Assembly (NCBI GenBank): GCA_025456345.1
Contig: JALOKU010000009.1
Location: 19,255-83,254 of the forward strand
Length of the DNA: 64,000 nucleotides
Source: Vicinamibacterales bacterium
Lineage (GTDB): Bacteria; Acidobacteriota; Vicinamibacteria; Vicinamibacterales; JAKQTR01
Direction: 5' to 3'
The position numbers were made by a program, and so were the translations under genes. Positions 43,777 through 62,111 of this stretch are shown here, one piece after another (the stretch's first letter is position 1; each line of letters starts with the position of its first letter). A model generated the notes under the pieces. The model saw nothing but the letters and a program-made list of their open reading frames with translations, made no database searches and was not told the origin of the DNA.

Positions 43777-44625
43777 CTAATTCAGGATCGCGAAGACAAT
43801 CAAGGCGACCATCAGCAGGCCGAGGACGACGGCGATGCCGCCGGCCGTGCGGCCGAGGCGGTACACCCAGCGCGGCGCCGCCGCGCTGGCCAGATCGTCG
43901 ATGCGACCCGTCCGCGTCAGGCGGGCGAACTCCTCCGGGCGCTCCTCCTCCATTTCCTTCAGCGTCACGCGGCCCGTGAACATCACCGAGTCCATCGGGA
44001 ACTTCTCCGGCCTGAGGTGCCCGGTGAAGAAGTGGAACGTGAAGATGAACACGACGGCGAGCAGCGCTTCTTCGCCGTGGACGAGCGCGGCGATGTTGAA
44101 GACCCAGCCCGGCACCACGTGCGCGAACGTCTCGGGCAGCCAGAGGATGAGGCCGGAGCCGCCGATGATCCCCATCCCCCAGAAGACCGCCCAGTAGTCG
44201 AACTTCTCCCAGTAAGTAAAGTGATCGAAGCGCGGGTGCGGGCCAGCGCCCACGAACCAGCGGATGTGGGCGATCATTTCGAAGAAGTCGCGCGGCTGGG
44301 GCACCATCGAGTTCGGCCCCCACAGGATGCCGAGGTCCTTCTGGCCGAACAGCCGGCGGAAGATCCGGCTCAGGTGAAGCACGAACACGGTGATCATCAC
44401 CACGGCACAGATGCGGTGGACAATCCCCGCGCTGCGGAACCCGCCGAAGAACCGTACGAGCGTCGCCGCCCACTCCTGGTGGCTGAACAGCAGCGGCAGG
44501 CCGGTGAAGGCCAGTCCCAGGAAGCTGAACATCAGGAATCCGTGCAGGAGCCGCTCTTCCCGGCCGAACCTCCGGTAGTGCGTATGGGCGGCCAATCGGC
44601 CGCCCTCCGGGACCTCCACGTTCAT
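43777..44625 (-). CDS. Di-heme cytochrome b subunit (FdnI/HydC-like; b domain of a CbcL-type quinol oxidoreductase)
   Basis: TM histidines RLLH, IVH, LVHGEEA, TFHFF; 'YWEKFDYWAVFWG'; ATGA overlap with the upstream cytochrome gene. Confidence 0.85.
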   Translation of the reverse strand: MNVEVPEGGRLAAHTHYRRFGREERLLHGFLMFSFLGLAFTGLPLLFSHQEWAATLVRFFGGFRSAGIVHRICAVVMITVFVLHLSRIFRRLFGQKDLGILWGPNSMVPQPRDFFEMIAHIRWFVGAGPHPRFDHFTYWEKFDYWAVFWGMGIIGGSGLILWLPETFAHVVPGWVFNIAALVHGEEALLAVVFIFTFHFFTGHLRPEKFPMDSVMFTGRVTLKEMEEERPEEFARLTRTGRIDDLASAAAPRWVYRLGRTAGGIAVVLGLLMVALIVFAILN

Positions 44626-45896
44626 TCGCCGTCCTCCGTCGCGTCGTCGTTCCTGGGGCGGCGCCATGCCCCGGCCGCCTTGAGCTGCACACTCCGCCCG
44701 AGCCACAGCACCGTGAGCAGGCCGAAGAACGAGAACACGCCCACCAGGAGCATCTTCATGAACTGGGCGGTGTAGAAGAGCGTCGGGTTCCGCTCGCGGT
44801 TCTCCGGGTCGGCGTGCGGGTCGAACTCGGCGAAGCTCGGCGTGGCGCCCTCATGGCACTGCTGGCACGTGGCCACACGCTTGGCGTCCGACACCATCGA
44901 GCGCGGGTCCGCCTTCGGGAACACGTTGTGCGCGCCATGGCAATCCGCGCACGAGGCGACGCGGGCGTACCCGAGCGCCGTGACCTGGCCGTGAAACGTG
45001 TCGCGGTAGGTCTCGAGGGAATGCTCGTGGCACGTCCCGCATTCCGTGATGACCTCGAGTTTCCATCCCTCCACGTCGGACCGGCGGATCTCGTGCGCCG
45101 TGTGGCAATTCGTGCAGACCGGCGCGAGGGGGCTACCCTTGGCGACCTGCGTCCCGTGCACGCTCTCCCAGTACTCGCGTCCGATGCCCTCGTGGCAGCT
45201 GCTGCACATGCCGGGAATCGTGGTGCGGAAGACCTTGCTCGCCGGGTCCGACTTGCGGCGGATGTCGTGGCTGCCGTGGCAGTCGGTGCACGTGGGCGCA
45301 ACGCTCAAACCGCTCTTGATGAGGGCCTTCCCGTGGATGCTGTCCTTGAAGAGATCGACGACATTGCCGATGCCGATCTGGCCGCGCTTGATGATCTCTT
45401 CGTCACCGTGGCACCGGCCGCACGTGTCGAGCAGCCGCGCATGGTGGGTGCGCGATCCCGGGTCCGCCGACGGCCTGATGTCGTGGCTGCCGTGGCAATC
45501 CGCGCAGGCGGCCGCCGAGAGATTGCCGCCCGACCGCCGCGCCTGCGCATGTACGCCCGAGTCGTACGCGGCGACGGCCTTCTCATGGCAGGTCCCGCAC
45601 TGCGCGGGCTTCAGCTTCTCGGCGTGGGGAAACTCGGCGAGCGTCGCCAGGTCCGTGTGACAGTCCACGCACGCCAGGCCGCCCATCCCGTGGATGGACT
45701 CTGCGAAGGTCTCGGGCTTGACCGCCACCGGCCGGCCGTCGGCGCGCACAGCACCGGCGTCGCTGTGGCACGCCAGGCAGTCGTCATTACTGGGAGGCTT
45801 CGGCGCGGCCGCCTTTTGCGGCGACGCCGCCGCGAATGAAACGGCGACGCCCAGCACGAGCGCAACACGGCAGCAGAGGAGGCTCACACGTATCAT
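44622..45896 (-). CDS. 11-heme periplasmic cytochrome c with C-terminal membrane anchor (c domain of a CbcL-type protein)
   Basis: Signal peptide, 11 CxxCH motifs counted, C-terminal TM 'MLLVGVFSFFGLLTVLWL'. Confidence 0.88.
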   Translation of the reverse strand: MIRVSLLCCRVALVLGVAVSFAAASPQKAAAPKPPSNDDCLACHSDAGAVRADGRPVAVKPETFAESIHGMGGLACVDCHTDLATLAEFPHAEKLKPAQCGTCHEKAVAAYDSGVHAQARRSGGNLSAAACADCHGSHDIRPSADPGSRTHHARLLDTCGRCHGDEEIIKRGQIGIGNVVDLFKDSIHGKALIKSGLSVAPTCTDCHGSHDIRRKSDPASKVFRTTIPGMCSSCHEGIGREYWESVHGTQVAKGSPLAPVCTNCHTAHEIRRSDVEGWKLEVITECGTCHEHSLETYRDTFHGQVTALGYARVASCADCHGAHNVFPKADPRSMVSDAKRVATCQQCHEGATPSFAEFDPHADPENRERNPTLFYTAQFMKMLLVGVFSFFGLLTVLWLGRSVQLKAAGAWRRPRNDDATEDGE

Positions 45897-45989
45897 GGAA
45901 ATGCCAGACACACGCAGGTTCTGAGGACTGGCCTCACCAGTTGCGTGCGGCGGCCCGCTCAGGCCGCCCGCACGGATCATGACACCGCC

Positions 45990-46951: not shown

Positions 46952-48235
46952 TCAGGCCGCGGCCGAGTCGTCGCGGGAGGATGGCCCGACCGGCGCTCCG
47001 CCGCCAGGAACGCCGGGAATTCGTCGCGACCGCGCCCGCCGCCGCCAGGCAAACAGCGGCGCGGCCGCCACCCGCGCCGTCCGCCGGTAGGCCTCATAAG
47101 CCCAGAAGGCTCCGTCTCTCGGCGCCAGCAGCGCGGCATCATCAGGGTTCACGACGATGCTGACCTCGATGTTCGGCGCCGCGCCGATGGGAATCCAGTT
47201 CTTCCGGCAGGCCTCGTAGACGTGCAGCATCACCGCGCGCATCTCGTCGTACTTGGGTGGCGGCCACGACTCCATGTCGGCGCCGACGGTGGGCCGGAAG
47301 ACGCAGACGGTCGGAAAGGCGCCGAGGCCCGCGATGTAGTCGATGGCGGCGATGGTGTCCTCGACGGGCTCGATGCCCGCGATGATTTCCCCCGACACGG
47401 CCCCCTTCGGCATGCGCTTCGCGCAATACTCCATCGCCTCGAGGAACAGCGTCTGGCCGAGCATCTTCTCCTTGCCGGGGCAGATCTCGGCGAAGTACTT
47501 CGGGTTCCAGAACTCGAGGCAGAACGACAGGTGGTCGACGCCCAGATCGATCAGGCGGTCGTAGCGGCTGAAGTCCTTCTCGGGCGCCAACTGCACACCG
47601 GTCAGCATCCCCACGTCCTCTTTGATCGCGCGGATGTAGGGCTCGGTGAACTGGATGCCGCGGCTGCCCTGGAAGCCGCCGTTCAGGTGCACGAAGGTGA
47701 CGCCCGACTCTTCTTTCGCCGCCCAGCAGGTCTCGACAACGTCCGACACCGCCTTGTCGGCCGACTCGCTCTCCCCCACGTTCTCGCCGGTCGTGCAGTA
47801 GCGGCAATTGAGGGCGGGGCTGTAGTTCCAGAACGTGCAGACGAGGTTGACGTAGATCCCGAGGTACGTGCCCTGCAGCACGCCGATGTGGTTCATCGCG
47901 ATGTCGCGCGACGTTTGCCGGCTGTACCACTCCGGCTCCTTCGGCACGCCCACCGTATAGCGGTCCTTCGTCTGCTCGTTGGTCAGCGCGTAGCCGGCGG
48001 CCGGCGAACCCGAGAGGACGTACGGCGACCGCCGCGCGAACGACTCGACCACGGGCACGTTGACCCAGACCTCGGGCTTCATCCACGAGCCGGTCGGAAT
48101 GGTGATCTCAAGGCCGGACCCGAGGCCGGCGCGGGTCCGCGAGATGCCCCGCGCCCCCTCGAGCGACACGTCGGCGGGAATCCTCATGCCGCGGCAGAAG
48201 AGGTCGATCTCGAGTTCGCACGCGTTGAGCGCCAT
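46952..48235 (-). CDS. Radical SAM protein with a non-canonical CX10CX2C motif
   Basis: 'CTFWNYSPALNCRYC', 'HLNGG', 'IIAGIEP', 'VCVFRP' (biotin-synthase-like barrel). Confidence 0.78.
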   Translation of the reverse strand: MALNACELEIDLFCRGMRIPADVSLEGARGISRTRAGLGSGLEITIPTGSWMKPEVWVNVPVVESFARRSPYVLSGSPAAGYALTNEQTKDRYTVGVPKEPEWYSRQTSRDIAMNHIGVLQGTYLGIYVNLVCTFWNYSPALNCRYCTTGENVGESESADKAVSDVVETCWAAKEESGVTFVHLNGGFQGSRGIQFTEPYIRAIKEDVGMLTGVQLAPEKDFSRYDRLIDLGVDHLSFCLEFWNPKYFAEICPGKEKMLGQTLFLEAMEYCAKRMPKGAVSGEIIAGIEPVEDTIAAIDYIAGLGAFPTVCVFRPTVGADMESWPPPKYDEMRAVMLHVYEACRKNWIPIGAAPNIEVSIVVNPDDAALLAPRDGAFWAYEAYRRTARVAAAPLFAWRRRARSRRIPGVPGGGAPVGPSSRDDSAAA

Positions 48236-48280
48236 ATGCGGCTCATTATGGATCAGGCGCGGCGCGTGAACCAGCGCGCG

Positions 48281-48298
48281 CTATGACGGCCGTCATAG
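48281..48298. promoter_or_regulatory. CRP/FNR-family operator palindrome
   Basis: Perfect 18-bp palindrome CTATGACGGCCGTCATAG with a TGA-N6-TCA core, in the divergent spacer. Confidence 0.62.
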
Positions 48299-48341
48299 GA
48301 CGCGGCGGCCAGACAGCGGATGCTTCCCTCGCGAGGCCCCC

Positions 48342-50324
48342 ATGCCCATTTCCGTACGGCTGCCGGACATCGATCACTGGAAGGCCCAGGTGAAGTGCCA
48401 GGCCGGCTGCCCCGTGTCGACCGACGCCGGCCGTTACGTGCAACTGATCGCCGAGGGCCGGCACGAAGACGCCTTCCTCGTTGCCCGAGGCCCGAATCCC
48501 TTCGCCTCCATCTGCGGGCGTGTGTGCGCAGCGCCCTGCGAGGACGCCTGCCGCAGGGCGGCCATCGACGCACCGGTCTCCATACGCGCGCTGAAGCGCT
48601 TCGTCACCGAGCAGTACGGCGTCGAGTCCACGCGGCCCGACACCCAGGATCGGCTGGCGGCGACGGCGATCGAAGAAGGCAACCGTTACGCCGGGCACAT
48701 GCCCCTAACGCTTCACCGCACCCTCCCGCCCACAGCGCGCGAAAATCGGAAAAAAGTCGCTGTGATCGGTGCCGGCCCGGCCGGCATGGCGGCCGCCCAT
48801 GACCTGGCCCTTCTGGGCTACAGCGTGACGGTGTTCGAAGCGGCGGCGGAACCCGGCGGCATGGTGCGGTTCGGAATCCCGGAGTACCGGCTTCCCCGCT
48901 CGGTCATCAGGTCGGAGATCGACAAGATCACGGCCCTCGGCATCGATCTCCGACTCGGCACGCCGCTCACCGCCGAGTTCGGCCTCTCGGATCTCCGCCG
49001 CCAGGGCTTCGAGTCCGTGTTTCTGTCGGTCGGGGTCGCCAAGGGACGCGACCTTCAGATGCCAGGCGTCGAACTCGATGGCGTCGTGAAGGCGGTGGAC
49101 TACCTGCTGAACATCAACCGCGGCTACCGCGTGCAGCTGGGACGGCGCGTCGTCGTCATCGGGGGCGGGTTTGTCGCCTTCGACGCCGCCCGCACGGCGC
49201 TGCGCGAGTACGCCGCCGACGCCGACGGCGAACGCGCCGAACTGGCGGCAGAATCCGACGCACGGGTGAAGGAGGCCTTCGATTCGGCGCGATCGGCCAT
49301 CCGGTCCGGTGCGCGTGACGTCACCATCGTCTCCCTTGAGAACTTCGAGGAAATGCCGGTTCTGCGCACGACGCAGGGCCACGAGGAGTTCGAAGAAGCC
49401 CGGAAGGAAGGCATCACGTTCCTGCCGCGCCGAGGCCCGTTCCGGTTCGTCGGAAACGGTACGCTGTCGGCGATCGAGTTGCGCGCCGTCACCTCGGTGT
49501 TCGACGCCAGCGGCCGCTTCGCCCCGACCTACGACGACGATGACGTGGTGACGATTGAAGCCGACGCGTGCGTCCTGGCGATCGGCCAACGCGCGGACCT
49601 TTCTTTTCTGAAGCCCGAGGACGGCGTGGCGCTGACACCAATGGGCACGATCCGCATCGACCCGTCGACGCTGGCCACCTCGGCCCCGGGCGTGTTCGCG
49701 GGCGGCGATGTCGCGTTCGGGCCCCGGAATCTGATCGAGGCTGTCGCCAACGGCAAGCGCGCGGCCCGCTCGATTCACGACTACCTCGGGCCGGGCGGCG
49801 GACGCACCGAGCAGCGCCTCGACATCGAGAAGCTGCCGACCGCGCGGTATCGCATGATCGCCGGGTTCGAGCGCTTCGACCGACAGGCTCCGCCCACGCT
49901 GGATCTGGGGCGCCGCACGGGCATCGCCGAGGTCGAAACGGGATATGGCCCCGCCGACGCGATTGAGCAGGCGGCGCGGTGCCTCGTCTGCCACGTGCAG
50001 ACGATTTACGACCCGGAACTGTGCGTCCTCTGCAACCGCTGCGTCGACATCTGCCCCGAGCACTGCCTGGCCATCGTCCCGTTCGAGGCGCTCGACCTGG
50101 ACGCGACAACGCGCCAGTCGCTGGTCGAGCGGGCCGGCGCCTCCAGCCTTCCTCTGTCGGCCATGGTGAAAGACGATGAGCGGTGCATTCGCTGCGGGTT
50201 GTGCGCCATCCGCTGCCCGACCGACGCGATGACGATGGAGAAGTTCACAATCACGGAACGCCTCGTGCCGTCCGGTCCGCACCCGCCCGATGCCGGTGCG
50301 CCAACGCAGGTGGGAACGAAATGA
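48342..50324 (+). CDS. NfnB/GltD/DsrL-like FAD-dependent NAD(P)H oxidoreductase with a C-terminal 2x[4Fe-4S] domain
   Basis: CQAGCP, CGRVCAAPCEDAC, GAGPAG, GGGFVAFD, RCLVC, CVLCNRCVDICP, CIRCGLCAIRCP; no signal peptide. Confidence 0.88.
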   Translation: MPISVRLPDIDHWKAQVKCQAGCPVSTDAGRYVQLIAEGRHEDAFLVARGPNPFASICGRVCAAPCEDACRRAAIDAPVSIRALKRFVTEQYGVESTRPDTQDRLAATAIEEGNRYAGHMPLTLHRTLPPTARENRKKVAVIGAGPAGMAAAHDLALLGYSVTVFEAAAEPGGMVRFGIPEYRLPRSVIRSEIDKITALGIDLRLGTPLTAEFGLSDLRRQGFESVFLSVGVAKGRDLQMPGVELDGVVKAVDYLLNINRGYRVQLGRRVVVIGGGFVAFDAARTALREYAADADGERAELAAESDARVKEAFDSARSAIRSGARDVTIVSLENFEEMPVLRTTQGHEEFEEARKEGITFLPRRGPFRFVGNGTLSAIELRAVTSVFDASGRFAPTYDDDDVVTIEADACVLAIGQRADLSFLKPEDGVALTPMGTIRIDPSTLATSAPGVFAGGDVAFGPRNLIEAVANGKRAARSIHDYLGPGGGRTEQRLDIEKLPTARYRMIAGFERFDRQAPPTLDLGRRTGIAEVETGYGPADAIEQAARCLVCHVQTIYDPELCVLCNRCVDICPEHCLAIVPFEALDLDATTRQSLVERAGASSLPLSAMVKDDERCIRCGLCAIRCPTDAMTMEKFTITERLVPSGPHPPDAGAPTQVGTK

Positions 50325-50842
50325 GCGACGCCAAACAGCCCCAGAACACCGACCGGCGCGACTTCTTGCTGAAGCTCGGCGCGGGCGCCGGATTCGTTGC
50401 GATTACGGCCCAAGCGGGCGCGTCGCTGCGTTCGCTGGTCCCGAACGTCACCTACGACGCTCCCACGACCGTGAAGGTCGGGCCTCCCGGAGAGTTCCCG
50501 GACGGCTTGAAATTCCTCCCCGACCAACGCCTGTTCGTGTTCCGGAACGGCAAGACGTTTCATGCCATCTCCGCCGTGTGCACGCACCTCGGTTGCACCG
50601 TCCGCGCGGAGGCGCTGTCCCGCGCGGAGGAGCAGACGATTGACGGCCAGCCGTTGCGCCTGACTCACCGCTTCATGTGCCCGTGCCACGGATCGCGATA
50701 CGGCGGCGACGGGACGAATGTCTCGGGCCCTGCGCCGAAGCCGCTCGCCTGGTACCGGTTGTCGGTCTCTCCCGACGACGGTCAGCTCGTGGCGGACCTC
50801 GCGGACGAAGTCGACCACAGCTTCCGCTTGACGCTGCCTTGA
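50321..50842 (+). CDS. Rieske [2Fe-2S] protein with a Tat signal anchor
   Basis: DRRDFL, CTHLGC, CPCHGS; ATGA overlap with the oxidoreductase gene. Confidence 0.92.
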   Translation: MSDAKQPQNTDRRDFLLKLGAGAGFVAITAQAGASLRSLVPNVTYDAPTTVKVGPPGEFPDGLKFLPDQRLFVFRNGKTFHAISAVCTHLGCTVRAEALSRAEEQTIDGQPLRLTHRFMCPCHGSRYGGDGTNVSGPAPKPLAWYRLSVSPDDGQLVADLADEVDHSFRLTLP

Positions 50843-50852
50843 GGTACCGACC

Positions 50853-52202
50853 ATGAGACTTCCGTTCACCCGAAGGGCGGCCGCCGGCGAAACCTCGCCA
50901 GGCGTGCACCCGCAGCCGCTCTGGAGCTACCGCCCGCAGTCGGACCGCGAGGCTGGCGACGCCGTCGTCTCGAACCTGCTGCTGCACTGGTTTCCCTCGA
51001 AGGTCTACAAGCCATCGTTGGCATGGAACTACTCGGCGTGGCTCGGCACCATCTCCGGCGCGCTGTTCTTCCTGCTGGTGCTGTCCGGCCTGCCCCTGAT
51101 GTTCCTGTACGTCCCGTCGGTGGAGCGCGCCTACCAGTCGGTGAAGGACATCGAGTACGTCGTGACCTTCGGCTGGTGGATTCGCGCCGTGCACCGAATC
51201 GGGGCGCACCTGATGGTGGTCGCGGTTGTGCTGCACCTGGCGCGGGTGTTCTTCACCGGCGCGTACAAGAACGGCGTCGGCCAAGGGCAGCAGCGCGAAT
51301 GGAACTGGGTCATCGGCGTCGTCATGCTGCTGCTGACGTTGTTTCTGTCTTTCACCGGCTACCTGCTCCCGTGGGATCAGCTCGCGTTCTGGGCCGTGAC
51401 GGTCGGGACCAACATTGCATCGGCGGTTCCCGGGATCGGGCCCCGGATCCGGGAACTCCTGATCGGCGGGCGCGCGATCGAGCAGGCCACCCTGATTCGC
51501 TTCTACGTCCTGCACATCATCGTCCTCCCCGGCGCCCTCGGCGGCCTCTTCGCGTATCACATGTGGCGCATCCGGAAGGATGGCGGGCTGGCGAGGGCCG
51601 ATGCCGCGGCTCTGGCGCCCGACGCGAAGGACACCGGACCGGTCCCGACGAAGACCTACACCCTGCTCGGCGTCGCCCGCGGCACGTCTCCGGCGGTCAC
51701 GGCGCGTTCCCCCGAAGCTCCGGACCAGACCGTCAATGCGGTCCCCGACCTCACGCGGCGAGCCCTGATCGTGATTCTCGGCACGTTCGCGCTCGTGAGC
51801 ATCCTCGCCAGCGCCATTCCATCCCCGCTGGAAGAACCGGCGAACGCGCTGATCACGCCGAACCCGGCCAAGGCCCCGTGGTACTTCCTCTGGCTGCAGG
51901 AAATCGTCACCGACACCACGATTCGGCTCGGGTCACTCACGATCAACGGCGCCTTTCTCGGCGGCGTGATTCTGCCAGGCCTGCTGGTCGGCCTCCTGAC
52001 GGTCTGGCCCTGGCTGGACAAGTCGGCCGTCTCCACGGCAGGGCTCTGGTTCCCGCGAAGCCGCCGGCGTCAGAACCTGCTGTTCATCCTGGCGATGCTG
52101 TTCATCCTGGCCTTCACGTTCGTCGGCATGTTCATGCGCGGGCCGTACTGGAACCTCTACTGGCCGTGGGAGACGTGGCCGGGCATTCCCGGGAGGATCT
52201 GA
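50853..52202 (+). CDS. Cytochrome b of a Rieske/cytb complex (b6-like and subunit IV regions fused)
   Basis: RAVHRIGAHLMV...LHLARVF, FTGYLLPWDQLAFWA, RFYVLH...YH; Qo motif reads APWYF. Confidence 0.92.
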   Translation: MRLPFTRRAAAGETSPGVHPQPLWSYRPQSDREAGDAVVSNLLLHWFPSKVYKPSLAWNYSAWLGTISGALFFLLVLSGLPLMFLYVPSVERAYQSVKDIEYVVTFGWWIRAVHRIGAHLMVVAVVLHLARVFFTGAYKNGVGQGQQREWNWVIGVVMLLLTLFLSFTGYLLPWDQLAFWAVTVGTNIASAVPGIGPRIRELLIGGRAIEQATLIRFYVLHIIVLPGALGGLFAYHMWRIRKDGGLARADAAALAPDAKDTGPVPTKTYTLLGVARGTSPAVTARSPEAPDQTVNAVPDLTRRALIVILGTFALVSILASAIPSPLEEPANALITPNPAKAPWYFLWLQEIVTDTTIRLGSLTINGAFLGGVILPGLLVGLLTVWPWLDKSAVSTAGLWFPRSRRRQNLLFILAMLFILAFTFVGMFMRGPYWNLYWPWETWPGIPGRI

Positions 52203-52203
52203 C

Positions 52204-53448
52204 ATGGAGAAACGAACCAACTCCCCGTTTCCCAGGATCGATCGCCCGGTGCTGGCCGCCATCGGGATTGTGCTCGTGGGGGCGACCGTCTTCTTCGCCT
52301 GGAGCGACCGCCAGCACGACTACAAGTACTACCAGTACGCCTTCCGCGGCATGGTGGCGGAGAAGCTGGGCGCGGAGCGCGCCGCGACCGTACCGTCCGG
52401 GCTGCAGCAGGTCTGGGTGCCCGGCTTGCGCCGCGCCGATCGGTGCGTGACCTGCCACCAGGCCGTCTCCTGGAAGGGGTTCGAGACCGCCGAGGAGCCC
52501 CACCGGACGCATCCGGGCGACCTCCTGAAGTCCCATCCGCCGGAGCGGTTCGGGTGCAGCGCGTGTCACGGCGGGCAGGGGTGGGCCATCGACACCGCCG
52601 CTGCGCACGGCGAGGTGGCGCACTGGGAGGAGCCGCTGCTCGGCAAGCCGCTCGGCGAGGCGTATTCGCTGACCGACAACAAGGCCGCGCTGATGCAGAT
52701 GAACTGCAATATCTGCCATCGCTACGAGCGGGCGACCAAGGGCGCGGAGATGATCAACCTGGCCAAGGACCTCGTCCAGGAGAAGGGCTGCCGGGCCTGC
52801 CACGTGATCAACGGCCGCGGCGGCACGATCGGCCCCGATCTGACGTGGGTCGGCGACAAGGCCCCGGAACAGTACGACTACAGCCGCCTGTCGGGCCAGA
52901 CGACGGCGTTCGCCTGGCACGTGGCGCATTTCAAGGACCCGCGGGCGCTCGTGCAGGATACGGTGATGCCGAACTTCCACCTGTCCACCAAACAGGCGCA
53001 GGCGCTCGCGATGCTCATGCTCTCCTGGCGCAAGGCGCCCTTCGACGCGGCGTTCCTCCCGGGCGTGCCGCGCACGGACCCGCAGACCGCCGATGAGCGG
53101 AAGGCCGAAGAGGACATGAAGACCGGGCCGGGCGCCTGGTTCGTGCAAACGGGCTGCTTCGTGTGCCACTCGATCGCCGCCCTGAAGGTGCGCAGTCCCG
53201 CCCAGATCGGCCCCGACCTGTCCACGGCCGTCGAGGACACGCAGAAGCGGTTCGGCGTGACCGTCGACCAGTTCCTGAAGAACCCGACCGGCACGATGTC
53301 GGTGGTGCTGTCGCGCCAGATCGTGCTGACGCCGGAACAGAAGGAGACCGCGATTCAGAAGTTGCGCGAGGCGTTCGCCGAGTATCAACGCCTCGTCGCC
53401 GAGGGCAAGAACCCGCTGGCGCCCCCGGTGGAGGCCGCCCCGAAGTAG
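52204..53448 (+). CDS. Membrane-anchored pentaheme cytochrome c
   Basis: N-terminal TM; CVTCH, CSACH, CNICH, CRACH, CFVCH. Confidence 0.88.
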   Translation: MEKRTNSPFPRIDRPVLAAIGIVLVGATVFFAWSDRQHDYKYYQYAFRGMVAEKLGAERAATVPSGLQQVWVPGLRRADRCVTCHQAVSWKGFETAEEPHRTHPGDLLKSHPPERFGCSACHGGQGWAIDTAAAHGEVAHWEEPLLGKPLGEAYSLTDNKAALMQMNCNICHRYERATKGAEMINLAKDLVQEKGCRACHVINGRGGTIGPDLTWVGDKAPEQYDYSRLSGQTTAFAWHVAHFKDPRALVQDTVMPNFHLSTKQAQALAMLMLSWRKAPFDAAFLPGVPRTDPQTADERKAEEDMKTGPGAWFVQTGCFVCHSIAALKVRSPAQIGPDLSTAVEDTQKRFGVTVDQFLKNPTGTMSVVLSRQIVLTPEQKETAIQKLREAFAEYQRLVAEGKNPLAPPVEAAPK

Positions 53449-53548
53449 ACGGGCGATGCACGGAGGCGCAGGCTTTCCCCGGCCCGCCTGTTCCCCTGCC
53501 TCCTTGAACGAGTGAGCCGGCCGTGACTGCTACGTGGAGGACATGCAC

Positions 53549-55408
53549 ATGAGTTGGATTCGCTCCCGATCCGCTGCCTGGGCGACGATTGGCGCCCTGG
53601 CGCTGGCGCTGTTCGTCAGCCGTTGCGCGCCGAGCGCGCCCAAGAAGGACGCCAAGAAGGCCGGCGGCGGCACCTCGGACATCGCCGTCGCCGCCCAGAA
53701 GACCTACGTCGCCCCGGGCGACCTGGACGAGTACTACCTGTTCTCGTCTGGCGGGCACTCCGGCCAAATCTACGTCTTCGGCGTGCCGTCGATGCGCCAC
53801 ATCTCGACGATTCCCGTCTTCACCCCCTACCCCGCCACCGGCTACGGCTTCGACGACGATTCGAAGAAGATGCTCGGGAACCTGACCTGGGGAGACGTGC
53901 ACCACCCGGCCCTCTCTGAGACCAACGGCGACTACGACGGCCGTTGGCTCTTCGTGAACGAGATGAACGGGCGGGTGGCGCGGATCGACCTGCGCGACTT
54001 CAAGACGAAGCAGATCCTCGGGCCGATCCCCAACGTCTCCGGCAACCACGCGTCCGCGTTCGTCACGCCGAACAGCGAGTACTCCGTGATGGCCTCGCGT
54101 TTCTCGATTCCCATCCCGAAAGGCACGGCCCTCGAGATCGCGAAGTACGCCACCGACTTCAAGGGCGTCATCACCGGGATCAAGATCGATCCCAAGAGCG
54201 GCGAGATGTCCTTCGGCTGGCAGGTGGTGATGCCGCCGTTCAACTACGACCTGGGCGACGCCGGGAAGAAGGCGTCCGACGGGTGGGTCTTCTTCACCTC
54301 GTACAACGCGGAGCGCGCCACCGGCAAGCTGGAGGTCACCTCGACCCAGCGCGATCGCGACTACATCGCGATGGTCGACTGGAAGATGGCGGAGAAGCTG
54401 GCCGCCGAGGGCAAGGGCACGCTCATCGGGGGCGTCAAGGTCCTGGACCCGAAGGAACTGCCGGGCCTGGTGTACCTCCTCCCCTGCGGCAAATCGCCCC
54501 ATGGCGTCGACGTGGCGCCCGACGGCAACTGGATCGTCGGCTCGGGCAAGCTCCAGGGCGTGACGACGGTATTCAACTTCGAGAAGATCCAGACGGCCAT
54601 CCGGAACAAGGACTTCACCGGCGAGGAAGACGGCATCCCGGTCCTGAAGTACGAGTCCATCAAGGACGCCGAGGTCCCGGTCGGCCTCGGGCCGCTGCAC
54701 ACCCAGTTCGGCACGGACGGCTACGCCTATACGTCGCTCTTCGTGGACAGCGCGGTCGCGAAGTGGAAACTCGGCACCTGGGAGGTCGTGGACAAGGTCC
54801 CGATGTCGTACTCGATCGGCCACCTCACGGCGGCCGAAGGTGACACGGTCAGTCCCGACGGCAACTACCTGGTCGGCCTGAACAAGCTGTCGCACGGGCG
54901 GCACCTGTCGGTCGGCCCGTCGCAGCCCGAGTCGTCGCAGCTGGTCGACATCACCGAGGAGAAGATGAAGCTGCTGTACGACGCGTTCACCGAGCCCGAG
55001 CCGCACTACGCGCAGATGGTGAAGGCCGACAAGATCCACCCGATCGAGGTGTATCCGAAGGAGGAGAACAAGCATCCGCACGCCATCTGGGACGTCAAGG
55101 ACGCCAGCGTGACGCGCAACGGCAACAAGGTCCTCGTCAAGATGATCGCGGTCCGTTCCACCCTCACGCCGACGGACTTCGAGCTGAAGGAGGGCGACGA
55201 GGTGACGATCGCCATCACCAACATCGAGCAGACAACCGATGAGCTGCACGGGCTCGGCATCCTCGACTACAACATCAACCTGGTCGTGGATCCCGGAGAA
55301 ACGAAGACCGTGACGTTCAAGGCGAAACGGGGCACGTTCCCGTTCTACTGCACGAACTTCTGCTCCGCACTCCACCAGGAGATGCAGGGCTACATGATCG
55401 TCCGCTAG
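53549..55408 (+). CDS. nosZ: Nitrous oxide reductase, clade II (Sec-pathway signal peptide)
   Basis: SGGHSGQ; CuZ histidines DVHH, GNH, SPHG, GPLH, IGH, EPHY; CuA motif H...CTNFCSALHQEM; no twin-arginine motif and no C-terminal heme domain. Confidence 0.96.
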   Translation: MSWIRSRSAAWATIGALALALFVSRCAPSAPKKDAKKAGGGTSDIAVAAQKTYVAPGDLDEYYLFSSGGHSGQIYVFGVPSMRHISTIPVFTPYPATGYGFDDDSKKMLGNLTWGDVHHPALSETNGDYDGRWLFVNEMNGRVARIDLRDFKTKQILGPIPNVSGNHASAFVTPNSEYSVMASRFSIPIPKGTALEIAKYATDFKGVITGIKIDPKSGEMSFGWQVVMPPFNYDLGDAGKKASDGWVFFTSYNAERATGKLEVTSTQRDRDYIAMVDWKMAEKLAAEGKGTLIGGVKVLDPKELPGLVYLLPCGKSPHGVDVAPDGNWIVGSGKLQGVTTVFNFEKIQTAIRNKDFTGEEDGIPVLKYESIKDAEVPVGLGPLHTQFGTDGYAYTSLFVDSAVAKWKLGTWEVVDKVPMSYSIGHLTAAEGDTVSPDGNYLVGLNKLSHGRHLSVGPSQPESSQLVDITEEKMKLLYDAFTEPEPHYAQMVKADKIHPIEVYPKEENKHPHAIWDVKDASVTRNGNKVLVKMIAVRSTLTPTDFELKEGDEVTIAITNIEQTTDELHGLGILDYNINLVVDPGETKTVTFKAKRGTFPFYCTNFCSALHQEMQGYMIVR

Positions 55409-55418
55409 GCACGAATGT

Positions 55419-55446
55419 GCGGGCGCCCCGCGATCGGGGCGCCCGC
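55419..55446 (+). terminator. Stem-loop after nosZ (mRNA stabiliser or partial terminator)
   Basis: Perfect 12-bp stem GCGGGCGCCCCG-CGAT-CGGGGCGCCCGC with no U tract. Confidence 0.55.
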
Positions 55447-55514
55447 CCTGCCCGCCCCGAGGTCGACGGGCCGACGCAGCGGTCGGAGGCCCCCTTCGAT
55501 CGGGAGAACGCACG

Positions 55515-56153
55515 ATGCAAGGCTTCTTCGCGCGACTGAACCAGTCTCTCGCCCGCCCCCTCGGTGTTGCGCCGCGGCTGCTCGTCGTGGCGTCGGCACT
55601 CCTCCTGGTCGCCGTGTATCTCTTTCCGCTGTGGAACCTGACGATGTTCGCTCCGCAGTACCCTGAAGGCCTCCGCCTGGACATCTACAGCTACAAGCTG
55701 GTCGGCGGGAACGGGGGGCAGGACATTCCCGAGATCAACATCCTCAACCACTACATCGGCATGCGGGATCTCGTGACCGACGACTTCACCGAATTCAAGT
55801 GGCTGCCGTTTGTCGTCGGCGCCCTCGGCTTGCTCTACCTCCGGGCGGCGGTGATGGGCACCGTGGGCGGGCTCGTCGACGTCCTGGTGCTCAACATCTA
55901 CTTCTCGGCGTTCGCGCTCTGGTCCTTCGGCTACAAGATGTACGTCTACGGGCACAACCTGCTGCCCACGGCGGCGGTGAAGGTGGAGCCGTTCATGCCT
56001 CCGATGTTCGGGGGAACGCAGCTGGCGAACTTCGAGGTCTACTCGTATCCGCAGGCGGGCTCGTACGCGATGGGCCTGTCGTCCCTGCTGCTCGTTGCGG
56101 CGTTGGTCGTGGCCTGGCGCCAGTCCCGCGCCGCCAGCCGGCAAGGCACGTGA
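55515..56153 (+). CDS. nosB: NosB-like membrane protein of clade II nos clusters
   Basis: 'PLWNLTMFAPQYPEGL', 'INILNHYIGM', 'YGHNL', four TM; located right after nosZ. Confidence 0.82.
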   Translation: MQGFFARLNQSLARPLGVAPRLLVVASALLLVAVYLFPLWNLTMFAPQYPEGLRLDIYSYKLVGGNGGQDIPEINILNHYIGMRDLVTDDFTEFKWLPFVVGALGLLYLRAAVMGTVGGLVDVLVLNIYFSAFALWSFGYKMYVYGHNLLPTAAVKVEPFMPPMFGGTQLANFEVYSYPQAGSYAMGLSSLLLVAALVVAWRQSRAASRQGT

Positions 56154-57529
56154 TGCGGGTGGCGGCCTTCCTCGCCGGGATGCTGGTTGCCGCGAGCGCC
56201 GCGGCGCAGGACCATGCCGTGACCCCGGGGAATCTCGAAGGGCGGCCGGGCGCTGAAAGCGCCTCGCCGCTCCAGGCGCGTCTCGACGCGGCGCCGCGAG
56301 GGGCCCGCGTGCTGGTCGACGCGGGCACGTATCGCGGCGATCTCGTCATCGAGAGACCGGTCCATCTCGTGGGGGTCGGGAGACCAGTGCTGGAGGGATC
56401 GGGCTCGGGCAGCGTGGTGAGGATTCGAGCAGCAGATGTGACCATCGAGGGCTTCGACGTCGACGGACTGGGTCACGGCGACCTTGGCCGCGACACGTCG
56501 GGCATCCACGTCGCCGCGCCCCGAGCGACCGTCAAGGACTGCCGAGTGAAGCGCGCCCTGTTCGGCGTGTATCTCCGCGAGGCCCCGGGCTCGACAGTCC
56601 AGGGCACGGTCATCGAAGGCGTGCCCGGCCTCGAGCCCGGCGAGAAGGGTTCTGGCATCCACGTCTGGAACACGGACGGATTCACCCTGACCGACAACCG
56701 GATCTACGAAGCACGGGACGGCCTCTACATCCAGTCCTCGCCCCACGGGTTCGTCGCCCGCAACGTGGCGAGCCACGTCCGGTACGGCCTGCACTACATG
56801 TTCTCCGACGACAACGTCTTCGAAGACAACCGGTTCGAGTACGCCGCGGCAGGTTCGGCCATCATGTACTCGAACCGCATCCGGTTCCGCCGCAACCAGT
56901 TCCTGCACAACCGGGGCTTCGCGTCCGTCGGGCTGCTCTTCAAGGCCTGCGACGACGTGGTGGCGGAGGACAACCTGATCGCGGACAACGCCCGAGGCAT
57001 CTTCCTCGAAGGTTCGAACCGCGATGTCTTCCGCCGGAACATCATCGCCGAGTCCGACGTGGCCATCGTGCTCTACGACTCCTGCGCGCGCATCCGATTC
57101 GAAGGCAATTCCTTCGTGGCGAACCTCTCGCCGCTCATGCTGGTGGGACGCAGGACCGATACCGTCGTCGCCGGGAACTACTGGTCGGAGAACCGCGAAC
57201 TCGATCTCGACGGCGACGGCTTCGCGGACCGCCCGTACCGGCTGTCCAGCGTGTTCGACCACATGCGGGGCAACCTCACGGCAGCTGATCTCTTCGCGCA
57301 GGGATTGGCGGCCACGGCGCTTGGCGCTGCCGAAACGGCGTTTCCCGTCCTGACCGCCATCACGGTCGAGGACAGCCGTCCGCTGGCGAGGCCTCCCGCG
57401 CTCCCCCTCGTACCGCGTCCTGAGCGCCAGACACGCTCCGCGAGACTTGCCGGCCTTGCCCTCTCGCTGGGCCTCGTCGCGGTGGGAGGTGCGGCGGCGG
57501 CCGCCGCCCGCGGGAGCCGCCGTCGATGA
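56153..57529 (+). CDS. nosD: Nitrous oxide reductase maturation protein NosD
   Basis: Beta-helix repeats, 'RDGLY', 'RYGLHYMFS', 'GNYWS...DLDGDGFAD.PY'; TGATG coupling. Confidence 0.93.
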   Translation: MRVAAFLAGMLVAASAAAQDHAVTPGNLEGRPGAESASPLQARLDAAPRGARVLVDAGTYRGDLVIERPVHLVGVGRPVLEGSGSGSVVRIRAADVTIEGFDVDGLGHGDLGRDTSGIHVAAPRATVKDCRVKRALFGVYLREAPGSTVQGTVIEGVPGLEPGEKGSGIHVWNTDGFTLTDNRIYEARDGLYIQSSPHGFVARNVASHVRYGLHYMFSDDNVFEDNRFEYAAAGSAIMYSNRIRFRRNQFLHNRGFASVGLLFKACDDVVAEDNLIADNARGIFLEGSNRDVFRRNIIAESDVAIVLYDSCARIRFEGNSFVANLSPLMLVGRRTDTVVAGNYWSENRELDLDGDGFADRPYRLSSVFDHMRGNLTAADLFAQGLAATALGAAETAFPVLTAITVEDSRPLARPPALPLVPRPERQTRSARLAGLALSLGLVAVGGAAAAAARGSRRR

Positions 57530-58425
57530 TCGCTTTCCGCGGTTTCCGCAAGCAGTTCGGGACGCACGTCGCCGTGGCGGATCTCACGCTGGAGATCGGG
57601 CGGGGAGAGACGCTCGCCCTGCTCGGACCGAATGGTTCAGGGAAGACCACCTCGCTCAAGGCGGCCGCAGGCCTCATCACGCCGACCGCCGGGGAGGTGC
57701 TACTCGGTGAACCGGGCCGGAGCGCGCACGCGCCATCGGCGCGCCAGGCTGTGTCATACCTGCCCCAGCGGGTGACCTTTCCCGACACCCTGACGGGCCG
57801 TGACGTCATCGAGTTCTACCGGCGCCTCCGCGGCTCGCCCGCGTCACGCACCGACGAGGTGCTGCGGGTTGCCTCGCTCAATGGCGCCGCCGGTCGGGCC
57901 GTGGGCACCTATTCGGGCGGTATGACGCAGCGCCTGGGCCTGGCCGTCGCCGTGCTGCCGAACGCCCCCGTCTTCCTCCTGGACGAGCCGACCGCCGCCC
58001 TCGATCCCGACGGGCTGGCGGCCTTCTACTCGACCGTTGAGCGGCACGCCGCCGAAGGGCGAACGGTGCTCTTCACCTCTCATCAACTGGGCGATGTCGA
58101 GCGTCTCGCGGATCGCTTTGCCGTCCTGGTGGCCGGGCGGCTGGTCGCCCTGCTGACGCAACGCGAACTGCACGATAGCCTCGCGCAGCGTGGCCTCATG
58201 CGCGTCCGGGCGGCCGGCCACCTCGAGGACGCCGTGGGGCGGCTCCGCTCGATTGCGCCTGATAGCCACCTGGAGGCCGACGAAATCGTGGTCCCCGGCC
58301 CTCCGTCGCTGCGCCCCGCGGCCCTCGAGGCGCTGCGCGACGCCGGCGTCGAGATCCGCGGCCTGACCGCCGAGGAGGGCCGTCTGGACAGGTTCTATCG
58401 CGAGCTGGTCGGAGACTCCGCATGA
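57526..58425 (+). CDS. nosF: ABC ATP-binding protein NosF
   Basis: GPNGSGKT, YSGGMTQR, LDEPT; follows nosD. Confidence 0.88.
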   Translation: MIAFRGFRKQFGTHVAVADLTLEIGRGETLALLGPNGSGKTTSLKAAAGLITPTAGEVLLGEPGRSAHAPSARQAVSYLPQRVTFPDTLTGRDVIEFYRRLRGSPASRTDEVLRVASLNGAAGRAVGTYSGGMTQRLGLAVAVLPNAPVFLLDEPTAALDPDGLAAFYSTVERHAAEGRTVLFTSHQLGDVERLADRFAVLVAGRLVALLTQRELHDSLAQRGLMRVRAAGHLEDAVGRLRSIAPDSHLEADEIVVPGPPSLRPAALEALRDAGVEIRGLTAEEGRLDRFYRELVGDSA

Positions 58426-58868
58426 AGGCCTTCGTGGCGGCCGCGCTCGCGCTGCTGGCGTCGGCCTGCGGCAGCGGCGTTCCAGGGCCTGTGCCTCTCG
58501 ACACGCGCACCGACGCCTGCGCCGAGTGTCGCATGGCCGTCTCGAGCGGCCGCTTCGCCTCCCAGATCGTCGCACCAGGCGAGGAGCCGCGTTTCTTCGA
58601 CGACCTCGGATGCCTGGCGGCCTACCTCGGCACCCGCTCCACGGTCCCGCCGAGAGCGGTCGCCTACGTCGCCGATCACCGCTCGGGCGAATGGGTGACT
58701 CTCGCCTCGGCGGTCTTCACGCGGGTGCCGGGCCTCGAGACGCCGATGGGCTCTCACGTGGTCGCGCACGCGTCGGCGGCCTCACGCGATGGCGATCCCG
58801 ATGTGCAGGGCGGCTCGGCCGTGGACGTACGCGCATTCTTCAAACGCGCCCTGCCGGACGGTTCCTGA
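58422..58868 (+). CDS. nosL: Copper chaperone lipoprotein NosL
   Basis: Lipobox 'ASAC', CAECRM, FDDLGC, TPMG. Confidence 0.9.
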   Translation: MKAFVAAALALLASACGSGVPGPVPLDTRTDACAECRMAVSSGRFASQIVAPGEEPRFFDDLGCLAAYLGTRSTVPPRAVAYVADHRSGEWVTLASAVFTRVPGLETPMGSHVVAHASAASRDGDPDVQGGSAVDVRAFFKRALPDGS

Positions 58869-59716
58869 TGACGGCCGTGTCGACGATCCACGCGATTGCC
58901 CTCTGCGCCCGACAGGAACTGGTCCTGGCGTACCGGTCGCGATGGACCCAGACGTTTGCCGTCGCCTTCGCCGTTCTCGCGCTCGCCGTGGCGGTCTCCG
59001 GCTACGTGCTCTCGGGCGGCAGCGGTGTCCAGGACTTCTCTCGCACCGCCGCGTCGCTCGTGCAGCTCGTGATTCTGCTCGTCCCGCTGACCGCCCTCCT
59101 GCTCGGCGTCCTCACCCTGGCCTCCGACCGCGGCAACGCGGAACTGCTCTTCTCGCAGCCCGTGTCGCGCGCCGCGATCCTGCTCGGCCGCGTGCTGGGC
59201 CTGTACCAGGCGCTGATTTCGGCCCAGGCGATCGGGTTCGGTGCGGCAGGCCTCGTCATCTACTCGCAGGCGGGCGAAGACGGCGTGACCGGTTTCCTCG
59301 TGGTGATCGCGGCGGCGTTCGTCCTGACGGGGGTATGCCTGGGCCTGGCCGCCGTCATCGCGGCCGGCAACATCGGCAGGCGGCGCTCGCGTGCGCTGGC
59401 CGTGGCCCTCGTGGTCTGGCTCGTGCTTGTGGTGCTCGCCGACCTTGCGGCCCTCGGCGCGGCGTCCCTGCTCCGATCTGGCGCCGCGTCCCGCCTCCTC
59501 ATCACGGCCGCCATCGTCAACCCGGTTGGCGCCGTGCGGACGGCCGCGCTCCTGTTGATTGATGGCACCGCGGCCTTCGGTTCGGCATCCCTGGCGCTCC
59601 TGAGGTTCTCGGGAGGTCCCCTCCGCGCCGGCCTGCTTCTCGCCGCGTCGCTCGTTCTCTGGCTCGTGCTGCCGTTCTGGGCCGCTTCGCGGCGCCTCTC
59701 TCGCGCCGATATCTGA
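58868..59716 (+). CDS. nosY: ABC permease NosY
   Basis: Six TM, 'ELLFSQPVSR..ILLG', 'NPV'; TGATG coupling with nosL. Confidence 0.88.
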   Translation: MTAVSTIHAIALCARQELVLAYRSRWTQTFAVAFAVLALAVAVSGYVLSGGSGVQDFSRTAASLVQLVILLVPLTALLLGVLTLASDRGNAELLFSQPVSRAAILLGRVLGLYQALISAQAIGFGAAGLVIYSQAGEDGVTGFLVVIAAAFVLTGVCLGLAAVIAAGNIGRRRSRALAVALVVWLVLVVLADLAALGAASLLRSGAASRLLITAAIVNPVGAVRTAALLLIDGTAAFGSASLALLRFSGGPLRAGLLLAASLVLWLVLPFWAASRRLSRADI

Positions 59717-62055: not shown

Positions 62056-62111
62056 CCGGCGCGCCCGCCACTCTTCAGCCGGGAACGAGATAGGGTAGGA
62101 TGGTCTGGTCC

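Follow-up and report, generated by a model that had tools for sequence, protein, structure and literature searches.

A Rieske/cytochrome b module with an NfnB/GltD/DsrL-type flavoprotein gene in the clade II nos operon of an acidobacterium, a candidate for quinol bifurcation

Biological removal of the greenhouse gas N2O is due mainly to organisms with the clade II form of nitrous oxide reductase (NosZ). To our knowledge, the route by which electrons reach clade II NosZ is known for Wolinella only. In that organism it consists of NosGH, NosC1 and NosC2 together with a general Rieske/cytochrome bc complex, and Hein and co-workers are said to have found in 2017 that the Rieske/cytochrome b (cyt b) complex of Wolinella succinogenes is needed for N2O respiration. 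Here we describe a nos operon in a stretch of 64,000 nucleotides (the window) from contig JALOKU010000009.1 of a Vicinamibacterales bacterium, a soil or wetland acidobacterium. The operon lies on the + strand at positions 48342-59716 and opens with the gene of an Fe-S flavoprotein of the NfnB/GltD/DsrL type, followed by genes for a Rieske protein, cyt b, a pentahaem cytochrome c and NosZ. Gene order, conservation and residue motifs point to a four-gene respiratory module (flavoprotein, Rieske, cyt b, multihaem c) which in this genome appears hard-wired to periplasmic NosZ. We favour, tentatively and at a chance that we put slightly short of even, the reading that the module bifurcates quinol and passes the low-potential electron to NAD+.

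Two Rieske/cyt b complexes of the anammox bacterium Kuenenia, Kuste4569-4574 and Kustd1480-1485, offer the nearest comparison. Each has a subunit of the nicotinamide adenine dinucleotide (phosphate) [NAD(P)] oxidoreductase type, and their Rieske potentials are +303 and +335 mV (Hauser et al. 2025, PMC12954380, cited here and below from excerpts). According to these excerpts, the AlphaFold3 models hold four Fe-S clusters and flavin adenine dinucleotide (FAD), and predict a further haem b, on His43/His62, where the two cyt b of the dimer meet; the Fe-S clusters of Kuste4570 were placed via the solved homologues 9bov/9bp5 (NfnABC) and 5t5i (FwdF); and Ser (with Tyr) hydrogen-bond donors go with Rieske potentials above +300 mV. 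The function of both complexes is itself only proposed, and quinol-based bifurcation has been put forward for them and never demonstrated. Homologous subunits co-migrate with the complex in Kuenenia (de Almeida 2016, as cited in excerpts of PMC12954380 and PMC5600118).

NAD(P)-binding Fe-S oxidoreductase genes are also reported near subfamily-G cyt b in many lineages beyond planctomycetes (Dibrova et al. 2017, PMC5600118, from excerpts), and the window module probably belongs with subfamily G of Dibrova et al. 2013, 2017. Neither 'nitrous' nor 'Acidobacteria' is found in the text of PMC5600118 (0 times each), and nosZ is not mentioned in the available passages of it. In published figures nos clusters include genes marked 'Fe-S', 'Rieske', 'cy-b' and 'cy-c', on which neither PMC13122619 nor the excerpts of PMC11096178 comment. 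Our literature search found no paper tying the electron supply of NosZ to an NAD-linked or bifurcating Rieske/cyt b complex. A preliminary description of this DNA had spoken of an uncharacterised way to conserve energy on N2O; the co-occurrence of the oxidoreductase with subfamily-G cyt b beyond anammox bacteria is already in print (PMC5600118, in excerpts). The design, little understood as yet, has been discussed mainly for anammox bacteria; here it turns up in a nos-linked form in cultivable N2O reducers.

The operon comprises ten genes with almost no spacing, as shown by open reading frames (ORFs) and their translations. The intergenic gaps are, in order, -4, +10, +1, +85, +106, -1, -4, -4 and -1 nt. 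Because the upstream gene lies on the - strand, the flavoprotein gene is the first of the unit. An ATGA is shared by its stop codon (50322-50324) and the Rieske ATG (50321), as read directly from the sequence (acg aaA TGA gcg). This overlap, and the succession of cyt b, pentahaem c and nosZ on the same strand, had been noted in the preliminary description, which is correct on every point that could be checked.

The flavoprotein combines a partial Fer4_20 Fe-S domain (residues 17-91), FAD and NAD(H) Rossmann domains (Pyr_redox_2, 137-471), a conserved linker and a C-terminal 2x[4Fe-4S] ferredoxin domain (556-630). The Rossmann part matches PF07992 at E 2e-30, and all of the 68 sequences compared have G143, G145, G148 and G274-G276. 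Among solved structures the relatives of the flavoprotein are first the NfnABC/StnC-type chains 9bov/9bp5 and 8oh5, then NfnA 9n5u, NfnB 4ylf/5jca and GltD (E 1e-73 to 1e-46), and the C-terminal domain matches FwdF 5t5i. Eighteen Cys are each 100% conserved among 75 orthologues, of which one, Cys410, belongs to the flavin/nucleotide part and 17 to Fe-S motifs. The latter are Cys19, 23, 58, 62, 66 and 70 of the NfnB-type domain (where Glu67 is conserved too), Cys547 and Cys550 of an RCLVC motif, Cys575, and two C-terminal CxxCxxCxxxCP motifs (Cys561/564/567/571 and 615/618/621/625). A library search for the family gave 21,231 matches at E <= 1e-3 and 3,406 at E <= 1e-30; 99 of the best 150 representatives are 560-720 aa long, nearly all with Fe-S-motif Cys, and most of the 99 keep the 17.

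The Fer4_20 match covers only profile positions 30-107 of 113, and the usual first CxxC is absent at the N-terminus. RCLxC at 546-550 aligns with the same motif of StnC-type chains and may complete the two NfnB-type clusters, which would give the flavoprotein four [4Fe-4S] clusters besides FAD. Since its translation has neither a signal peptide nor a hydrophobic helix, the protein is predicted to be cytoplasmic. A haem c site at CLVCH (547-551) was considered and is unlikely because of this predicted location and because both Cys align with the StnC-type RCLxC.

In Rossmann domains an acidic residue at the end of beta-2 favours NAD(H), and the basic YRR of NfnB/GltD NADPH enzymes binds the 2'-phosphate. 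The flavoprotein has VSLE (330-333) at this place, where the PDB alignments show YRR in the NADPH enzymes 9bov and 9n5u, and Leu332 and Glu333 are shared by all of the 68 family members compared. Because VSLE replaces YRR, the usual rule predicts a site of the NAD(H) type, not NADP(H). The "NAD(P)H flavo-Fe-S subunit" of the preliminary description therefore stands as to FAD and Fe-S and is narrowed as to the nucleotide.

The core of Fer4_20 and Pyr_redox_2 is common to this protein, NfnAB/NfnABC-StnABC and GltD, and RCLxC is shared with StnC-type chains. It differs from Nfn and GltD in the additional C-terminal 2x[4Fe-4S] domain, the missing first CxxC, VSLE for YRR, and the lack of an adjacent gene for an NfnA-like (ferredoxin-NADP reductase-like, [2Fe-2S]) partner; its gene is flanked on the upstream side by a radical SAM gene and on the downstream side by that of the Rieske protein. 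DsrL consists of an NfnB-like part and a C-terminal two-cluster ferredoxin domain, and its domain order and length are similar to those of the window flavoprotein. The window differs from DsrL systems in that there is no dsrAB context and the partner is a membrane cytochrome b complex, and no DsrL model is among the best 25 of 88 NCBIfam matches. NosR, another Fe-S flavoprotein of nos operons, is thought to feed or activate NosZ (excerpts of PMC13685413); it resides in the membrane, has its FMN domain on the periplasmic side and shows no homology to the flavoprotein described here.

The best solved-structure matches of the Rieske protein are 9rk4 (Kuste4569, E 8e-18) and 9rk3 (Kustd1480, E 1e-16). 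Its second box, CPCHGSRY, has the Ser and Tyr hydrogen-bond donors of high-potential Rieske proteins; Kuste4569 has S and Y and Kustd1480 has S and F at these places. Box II reads GS.Y in 73 of the 76 nos-type orthologues and GS.F, as in Kustd1480, in most of the distant ones. The signature points to a high potential of the Rieske cluster.

In cyt b the canonical four haem ligands are kept (His114, His128, His221, His236), and the NCBIfam matches are ExtP/ExtQ-like and below cut-off. The protein contains no cysteine, and so it has no haem cN; Trp63 (Trp63-Leu-Gly-Thr) aligns with Cys35 of b6 (Cys35-x-Gly-Gly). An extra His45, in an N..LH motif, is conserved in 70/70 nos-type and in 98% of 54 distant cyt b, and the motif is missing in 4/4 other-type cyt b from the same genomes. 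His45 may carry a haem, by analogy with the Kuenenia models. Split forms occur elsewhere in the family, as 18 of the 59 cyt b ORFs of distant loci are only 234-301 aa long and represent the b6-like half alone. The Qo-site motif NPAKAPWYFL (residues 337-346) is invariant in 65 cyt b of all module types and has no acidic residue where PEWY/PDWY have one. Its invariance shows that quinol oxidation has in all likelihood been retained by the module. Two further loci (L171, L175) encode Rieske, a split cyt b with both the CxGG haem cN motif and the N..LH His, and multihaem c, with no flavoprotein gene within 8 kb; their flavoprotein partner may be encoded elsewhere or be absent.

The pentahaem cytochrome has five CxxCH in 62/62 orthologues, and its N-terminal hydrophobic helix is visible in the translation. 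NosZ scores 891 bits with the Sec-type model TIGR04246 (cut-off 625) and 435 with the TAT-type model, below the cut-off of the latter; it has no C-terminal cytochrome c domain and no CxxCH. The nosB gene directly follows nosZ, a position typical of clade II clusters (PMC11409646, from excerpts), and nosDFYL come after it.

These proteins resemble the anammox complexes in several respects. The flavoprotein gene lies inside a Rieske/cyt b/multihaem c operon in the window, as in Kuste4569-4574 and Kustd1480-1485. The window flavoprotein and Kuste4570 share FAD, a nucleotide site, Cys for four Fe-S clusters and the solved homologues 9bov/9bp5 and 5t5i; the Rieske protein shares the Ser (+Tyr) signature with its two best solved relatives; cyt b has a conserved N-terminal His, which may correspond to Kuste4571 His43 or Kustd1481 His62; and both systems have a high-potential partner reaction. 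The anammox analogy drawn in the preliminary description is thus borne out at the level of sequence, and homology to Kuste4570 and Kuste4571 is suggested by these shared solved homologues and the Rieske matches. There are also differences. The window cyt b is fused (449 aa), whereas the anammox one is split into b6 and subunit IV (five helices); the window cytochrome has five haems instead of six or eight, and there is no hydroxylamine oxidoreductase (HAO)-like subunit; the terminal enzyme is NosZ, and the nucleotide site is predicted to be of the NAD(H) type (VSLE, not YRR). The hosts are heterotrophic Acidobacteriota and Myxococcota. A search for anammox relatives with the low-GC representative P0083 gave 75 pattern matches and no relative. 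With Wolinella the window shares a clade II Sec-type NosZ, NosB, NosDFYL and a Rieske/cyt b complex. It differs in lacking NosG, NosH, NosC1 and NosC2, in the NosZ without a cytochrome c domain, and in having the Rieske/cyt b genes inside the nos operon, together with a flavoprotein gene.

A search for the flavoprotein locus yielded 80 loci with 67-83% identity, from Acidobacteriota (Vicinamibacterales, Thermoanaerobaculia and others), Anaeromyxobacter sp. PSR-1, three metagenome-assembled genomes (MAGs) of Anaeromyxobacteraceae, one Myxococcales MAG and one MAG labelled Acidithiobacillales. Among the loci that extend far enough, and requiring the same order and strand, the genes of the operon recur downstream of the flavoprotein gene almost without exception (Table 1). 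The median gap between flavoprotein stop and Rieske start is -4, and in 71 of 77 orthologous loci the gap does not exceed 50 nt; a few strongly negative values are ORF-calling artefacts. Chance adjacency is ruled out, as every related locus of sufficient length shows the arrangement. The neighbourhood survey suggested in the preliminary description thus found the flavoprotein gene linked to Rieske in other genomes throughout, in 75/75 close loci and, as described below, 60/60 distant ones. Among Myxococcota, 20 of 301 genomes carry the family, 15 of these at 68-75% identity to the window flavoprotein. Because identity between the phyla exceeds that between module types within one phylum, horizontal movement of the whole nos unit is suggested. 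The MAG labelled Acidithiobacillales (L076) encodes flavoprotein (69% identity), Rieske, cyt b and pentahaem c before the locus ends, and may reflect a binning error or horizontal transfer.

The module is not confined to nos operons. A flavoprotein match at E <= 1e-80 was found in 87 of 401 Acidobacteriota genomes, from which 60 loci with 40-62% identity were taken, one or two per genome. Rieske is present in all 60, and cyt b and multihaem c in 59; locus L130 shows the Rieske gene alone, with no cyt b or multihaem c. In 48 loci Rieske directly follows the flavoprotein gene; in the other 12 it is found on the same strand, no more than about 8-9 kb away. Only five loci contain nosZ (L090-L094, 52-62% identity). 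In 12 loci (L112-L116, L118-L122, L125, L128; e.g. L112:2495-11851) the flavoprotein gene lies inside a cbb3 oxidase operon in the order Rieske, cyt b, multihaem c, CcoN (COX1), CcoO (FixO), small ORF, flavoprotein, DsbD_2, FixG, FixI. In about 16-18 loci (L126, L127, L129, L133-L149; e.g. L135:1795-5265, L126:570-1694) flavoprotein, Rieske, cyt b and a 7-8-haem cytochrome precede a molybdoenzyme pair, namely a molybdopterin subunit of about 1150 aa and a 375-aa Fe-S subunit resembling type II enzymes of the dimethyl sulfoxide (DMSO) reductase family (TIGR03479 and TIGR03478, below cut-offs). A third module type (L095, L098-L111, L131; e.g. L103:8137-9603 on the - strand, L098:8143-8727 on the + strand) is preceded by a PAS-LuxR regulator, a protein of about 490 aa and a 195-aa cupredoxin-like protein. 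The second of these proteins (489 aa) has no Pfam or NCBIfam match and could be an unrecognised terminal enzyme.

In the converse test, NosZ was found at E <= 1e-50 in 42 of the 401 genomes, and 18 of the 42 have the flavoprotein gene within about 6 kb upstream of nosZ on the same contig. In 20 loci examined from the other 24 genomes, none of Rieske, cyt b, multihaem c and flavoprotein lies near nosZ. In this sample, therefore, Rieske/cyt b linked to nos is never without the flavoprotein, nor is the flavoprotein ever without Rieske/cyt b. FastTree trees of flavoprotein and cyt b from 65 shared loci both recover nos, cbb3 and Mo-enzyme clades, with supports of 0.985, 1.0 and 1.0 for the flavoprotein and 0.37, 1.0 and 1.0 for cyt b. 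Pairwise distances of the two proteins correlate at r = 0.97, the pairs not being independent. Judged from these distributions, the partnership of flavoprotein and Rieske/cyt b is older than the link to NosZ, and the window represents a NosZ-wired subclade of a general flavoprotein-bearing Rieske/cyt b module.

The host genome (5.07 Mb, 90.8% complete) has a single PF00033 cytochrome b, the operon copy, as do 2 of 5 other cluster-bearing genomes, including Anaeromyxobacter PSR-1. It has Complex I genes and three haem-copper oxidase genes, two of which share contigs with NrfD-type genes, an arrangement that looks like alternative complex III (ACIII-like). No NapH/NosH-type gene scored over the cut-off in this genome at its 90.8% completeness (best 78 bits, cut-off 213); FMN_bind, the periplasmic domain of NosR, was not found in the genome, and nosG, nosH, nosC1 and nosC2 are absent between 46.8 and 59.8 kb of the window. 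Genes of the ApbE/NosX family exist on other contigs only. The absence of nosR, nosG and nosH given in the preliminary description thus extends to the genome as a whole, as far as its 90.8% completeness allows. A NosZ-dedicated role of the Rieske/cyt b complex is plausible here, because there are no NosR/NosGH-type genes and no second cyt b and because ACIII-like and Complex I genes are present. The earlier view of a complex dedicated to NosZ holds in this sense for this genome, but other Acidobacteriota have the module wired to a cbb3 oxidase or to a type-II Mo enzyme. Contigs identical to the window in two metatranscriptome runs (X20, X21) lie on the flavoprotein gene, cyt b, NosZ and NosB, and across the cyt b/multihaem c junction.

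Taken with the gene linkage, the sequence features suggest that the flavoprotein is probably an n-side (cytoplasmic-side) subunit physically bound to the Rieske/cyt b module. In the bifurcation that we favour, the presumed pool quinol, menaquinol, would be oxidised at the Qo site and the high-potential electron would pass through Rieske and pentahaem c to NosZ and N2O. The low-potential electron would cross the membrane via haems bP and bN. It would not return to quinone at Qi but would leave the membrane, possibly via the extra haem on His45, for the four [4Fe-4S] clusters and the FAD of the flavoprotein, which would reduce NAD+; the strongly oxidising N2O/N2 couple would pay for NADH formation. 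We favour this course because of the high-potential Rieske signature, the link to very high-potential terminal enzymes only (NosZ, cbb3 and the type-II DMSO-reductase family), the presence of Complex I and the anammox precedent. Several points weigh against it. We know of no experiment on any member, those of anammox bacteria included, that shows NAD(P)+ reduction. The hosts are heterotrophs and obtain NADH from substrates, so that the benefit of bifurcation is not evident. The His motif occurs also in the cyt b genes of L171 and L175, which have no flavoprotein gene within 8 kb, and the window cyt b, with Trp63, lacks haem cN, which lies on the path in the Kuenenia models (PMC12954380, excerpts). 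The contigs of X20 and X21 may include carried-over DNA; that no RNA contig bridges the flavoprotein/Rieske junction (50321), and that bins 50329-50890 (the Rieske gene) have no cover in any of four RNA runs, is not evidence of absence. A complex prediction from alignments for the cyt b dimer (36-449) with flavoprotein residues 495-660 scored 0.12 against a mark of 0.32 and is neutral either way.

The same complex could instead run in reverse, with the flavoprotein oxidising NADH and delivering electrons through Fe-S clusters to haem bN or Qi, which would make it an NADH:cytochrome c (NosZ) oxidoreductase with a Q-cycle, working without Complex I. The gene neighbourhoods fit this course equally well, every step of it would be downhill, the heterotrophic hosts are rich in NADH, and the predicted NAD(H) site with its invariant Glu333 suits catabolic NADH; members of the NfnB/GltD/DsrL family are moreover established as bidirectional in known enzymes. 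Yet the presence of Complex I genes leaves no evident need for a further NADH entry point, and this complex conserves more energy per electron. The Ser/Tyr Rieske signature and the exclusively high-potential acceptors would be superfluous in a downhill chain, and NADH input alone leaves the invariant Qo motif and the retained quinol oxidation unexplained. We regard this direction as a strong rival, somewhat less likely than bifurcation. That the flavoprotein is a soluble cytoplasmic enzyme merely co-expressed with the complex, serving NAD(P)H/ferredoxin balance or another acceptor, is improbable. Such a role would suit its distance of about 8-9 kb from Rieske in the cbb3-type loci, with cyt b, multihaem c, ccoNO and a small ORF between, as well as the public annotation, which for the Anaeromyxobacter orthologue is only 'FAD-dependent oxidoreductase'. 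It hardly explains, however, why linkage to Rieske/cyt b persists in all 60 distant and all 75 close loci, in two phyla and four different terminal-enzyme settings, why start and stop codons mostly overlap and why the trees agree, and it sits poorly with the co-migration of the homologous Kuenenia subunits cited above.

The preliminary description had also raised the activation of CuZ, by which NAD(P)H electrons passing through flavoprotein and b haems would keep this centre of NosZ reduced and active in the manner of NosR. The genome indeed has no NosR or NosGH-type genes, and clade II clusters need a NosR substitute, a function discussed for NosGH (PMC13685413, in excerpts). This alternative is weakened by the occurrence of the same four-gene module with cbb3 oxidase or a type-II Mo enzyme, 55 of the 60 distant flavoprotein-Rieske/cyt b loci having no NosZ. 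All 20 acidobacterial nos clusters examined that lack the module still carry NosZBDF(Y/L), so the module does not meet a general need of maturation, and we consider a NosR-like role very improbable.

If quinol bifurcation to NAD+ takes place, N2O respiration in these organisms departs from textbook schemes in both energy yield and redox balance. It is conceivable, though we lean against it, that Acidobacteriota and Anaeromyxobacter, which are abundant in soils, possess a whole family of flavoprotein-bearing Rieske/cyt b complexes, each wired to NosZ, cbb3 or a type-II molybdoenzyme, that bifurcate quinol to NADH in place of a Q-cycle. N2O respiration would then conserve energy as reducing power, and the anammox complexes would be an instance of a general respiratory mode that has so far gone unrecognised. 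The design is common in any event, being present in 18 of the 42 NosZ-positive acidobacterial genomes and 15 of the 20 family-bearing Myxococcota genomes sampled. In a survey of 172 soil metagenomes, acidobacterial nosZ II predominated among the nosZ groups in 61 (PMC13122619). Work on the anammox hypothesis, in which bc complexes form NAD(P)H, has stalled for want of tractable organisms; Anaeromyxobacter (L061, 71% flavoprotein identity, same operon) can be cultivated on N2O, which makes the hypothesis testable whatever the direction of flow.

Table 1. Features of the nos operon and its surroundings in the window. The last column gives the close loci in which the gene lies downstream of the flavoprotein gene.
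Feature	Position	Strand	Basis	Close loci
NfnB/GltD/DsrL-type flavoprotein, 660 aa	48342..50324	+	Pfam, NCBIfam and PDB matches; predicted cytoplasmic	
Rieske [2Fe-2S] subunit, 173 aa	50321..50842	+	Pfam Rieske; Tat motif RRDFLL; boxes CTHLGC, CPCHGSRY	75/75
Fused cytochrome b (b6-like + subunit-IV-like), 449 aa	50853..52202	+	Pfam Cytochrome_B + Cytochrom_B_C	72/72
Membrane-anchored pentahaem cytochrome c, 414 aa	52204..53448	+	Five CxxCH at 81, 118, 168, 196, 318; cytochrome c domains	67/67 (multihaem c)
NosZ, clade II (Sec-dependent), 624 aa	53534..55408	+	TIGR04246; nos_propeller + cupredoxin domains	62/62
NosB-position membrane protein, 212 aa	55515..56153	+	Named by position and conservation; no Pfam/NCBIfam match	51/51
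NosD	56153..57529	+	TIGR04247, 382 bits (cut-off 300)	50/50
NosF ABC ATPase	57526..58425	+	ABC_tran, position, conservation	50/50
NosL-like lipoprotein	58422..58868	+	Pfam NosL E 4e-4, below cut-off	45/46
NosY ABC-2 permease	58868..59716	+	ABC2_membrane_2	44/44
Divergent intergenic region, 106 bp (presumed operon promoter region)	48236..48341	.	Between end of - strand radical SAM gene (48235) and ATG 48342	
Radical SAM variant	46952-48235	-	NF045502, 189 bits (cut-off 125)	
Multihaem c-type cytochrome	42370-43752	-	NapC/NirT-like, cytochrome c7/c3-like domains (with next row)	
Multihaem c-type cytochrome	44622-45980	-	See previous row	
Crp/Fnr-family regulator	62100-62801	+	cNMP_binding + HTH_Crp_2	
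GltD-like paralogue, 519 aa	~8311-9558	+	42% identity to flavoprotein over FAD domain	

The intergenic region upstream of the flavoprotein gene presumably holds the operon promoter. A scan of it for the sigma-70 consensus found no site, the consensus being uninformative for this phylum. A promoter/terminator consensus scan gave one promoter-like and five terminator-like sites where 0.8 and 6.7 are expected by chance, and is likewise uninformative; the G+C content of the window is 64-73%.

Some observations concern relatives of the flavoprotein. The GltD-like paralogue lies 40 kb upstream in the window and has no match to the C-terminal ferredoxin domain. In genome G362 (C2:1089610-1091540) the nos-linked flavoprotein gene is split into two parts (residues 1-374 and 390-647, each with 74% identity), which could be due to a frameshift or an assembly error. 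The fusion forms P0008 (1069 aa) and P0046 (820 aa) gave only a weak TPR match and no other telling extra domain.

The radical SAM gene is divergent from the operon, and 15 of 68 loci have a relative of it (47-80% identity) that lies, in one orientation or the other, no more than 1.5 kb ahead of the flavoprotein gene. Further upstream, two multihaem c-type cytochrome genes lie on the strand opposite to the operon. The Crp/Fnr-family regulator gene is found 2.4 kb past nosY and is a candidate for the regulator of the operon.

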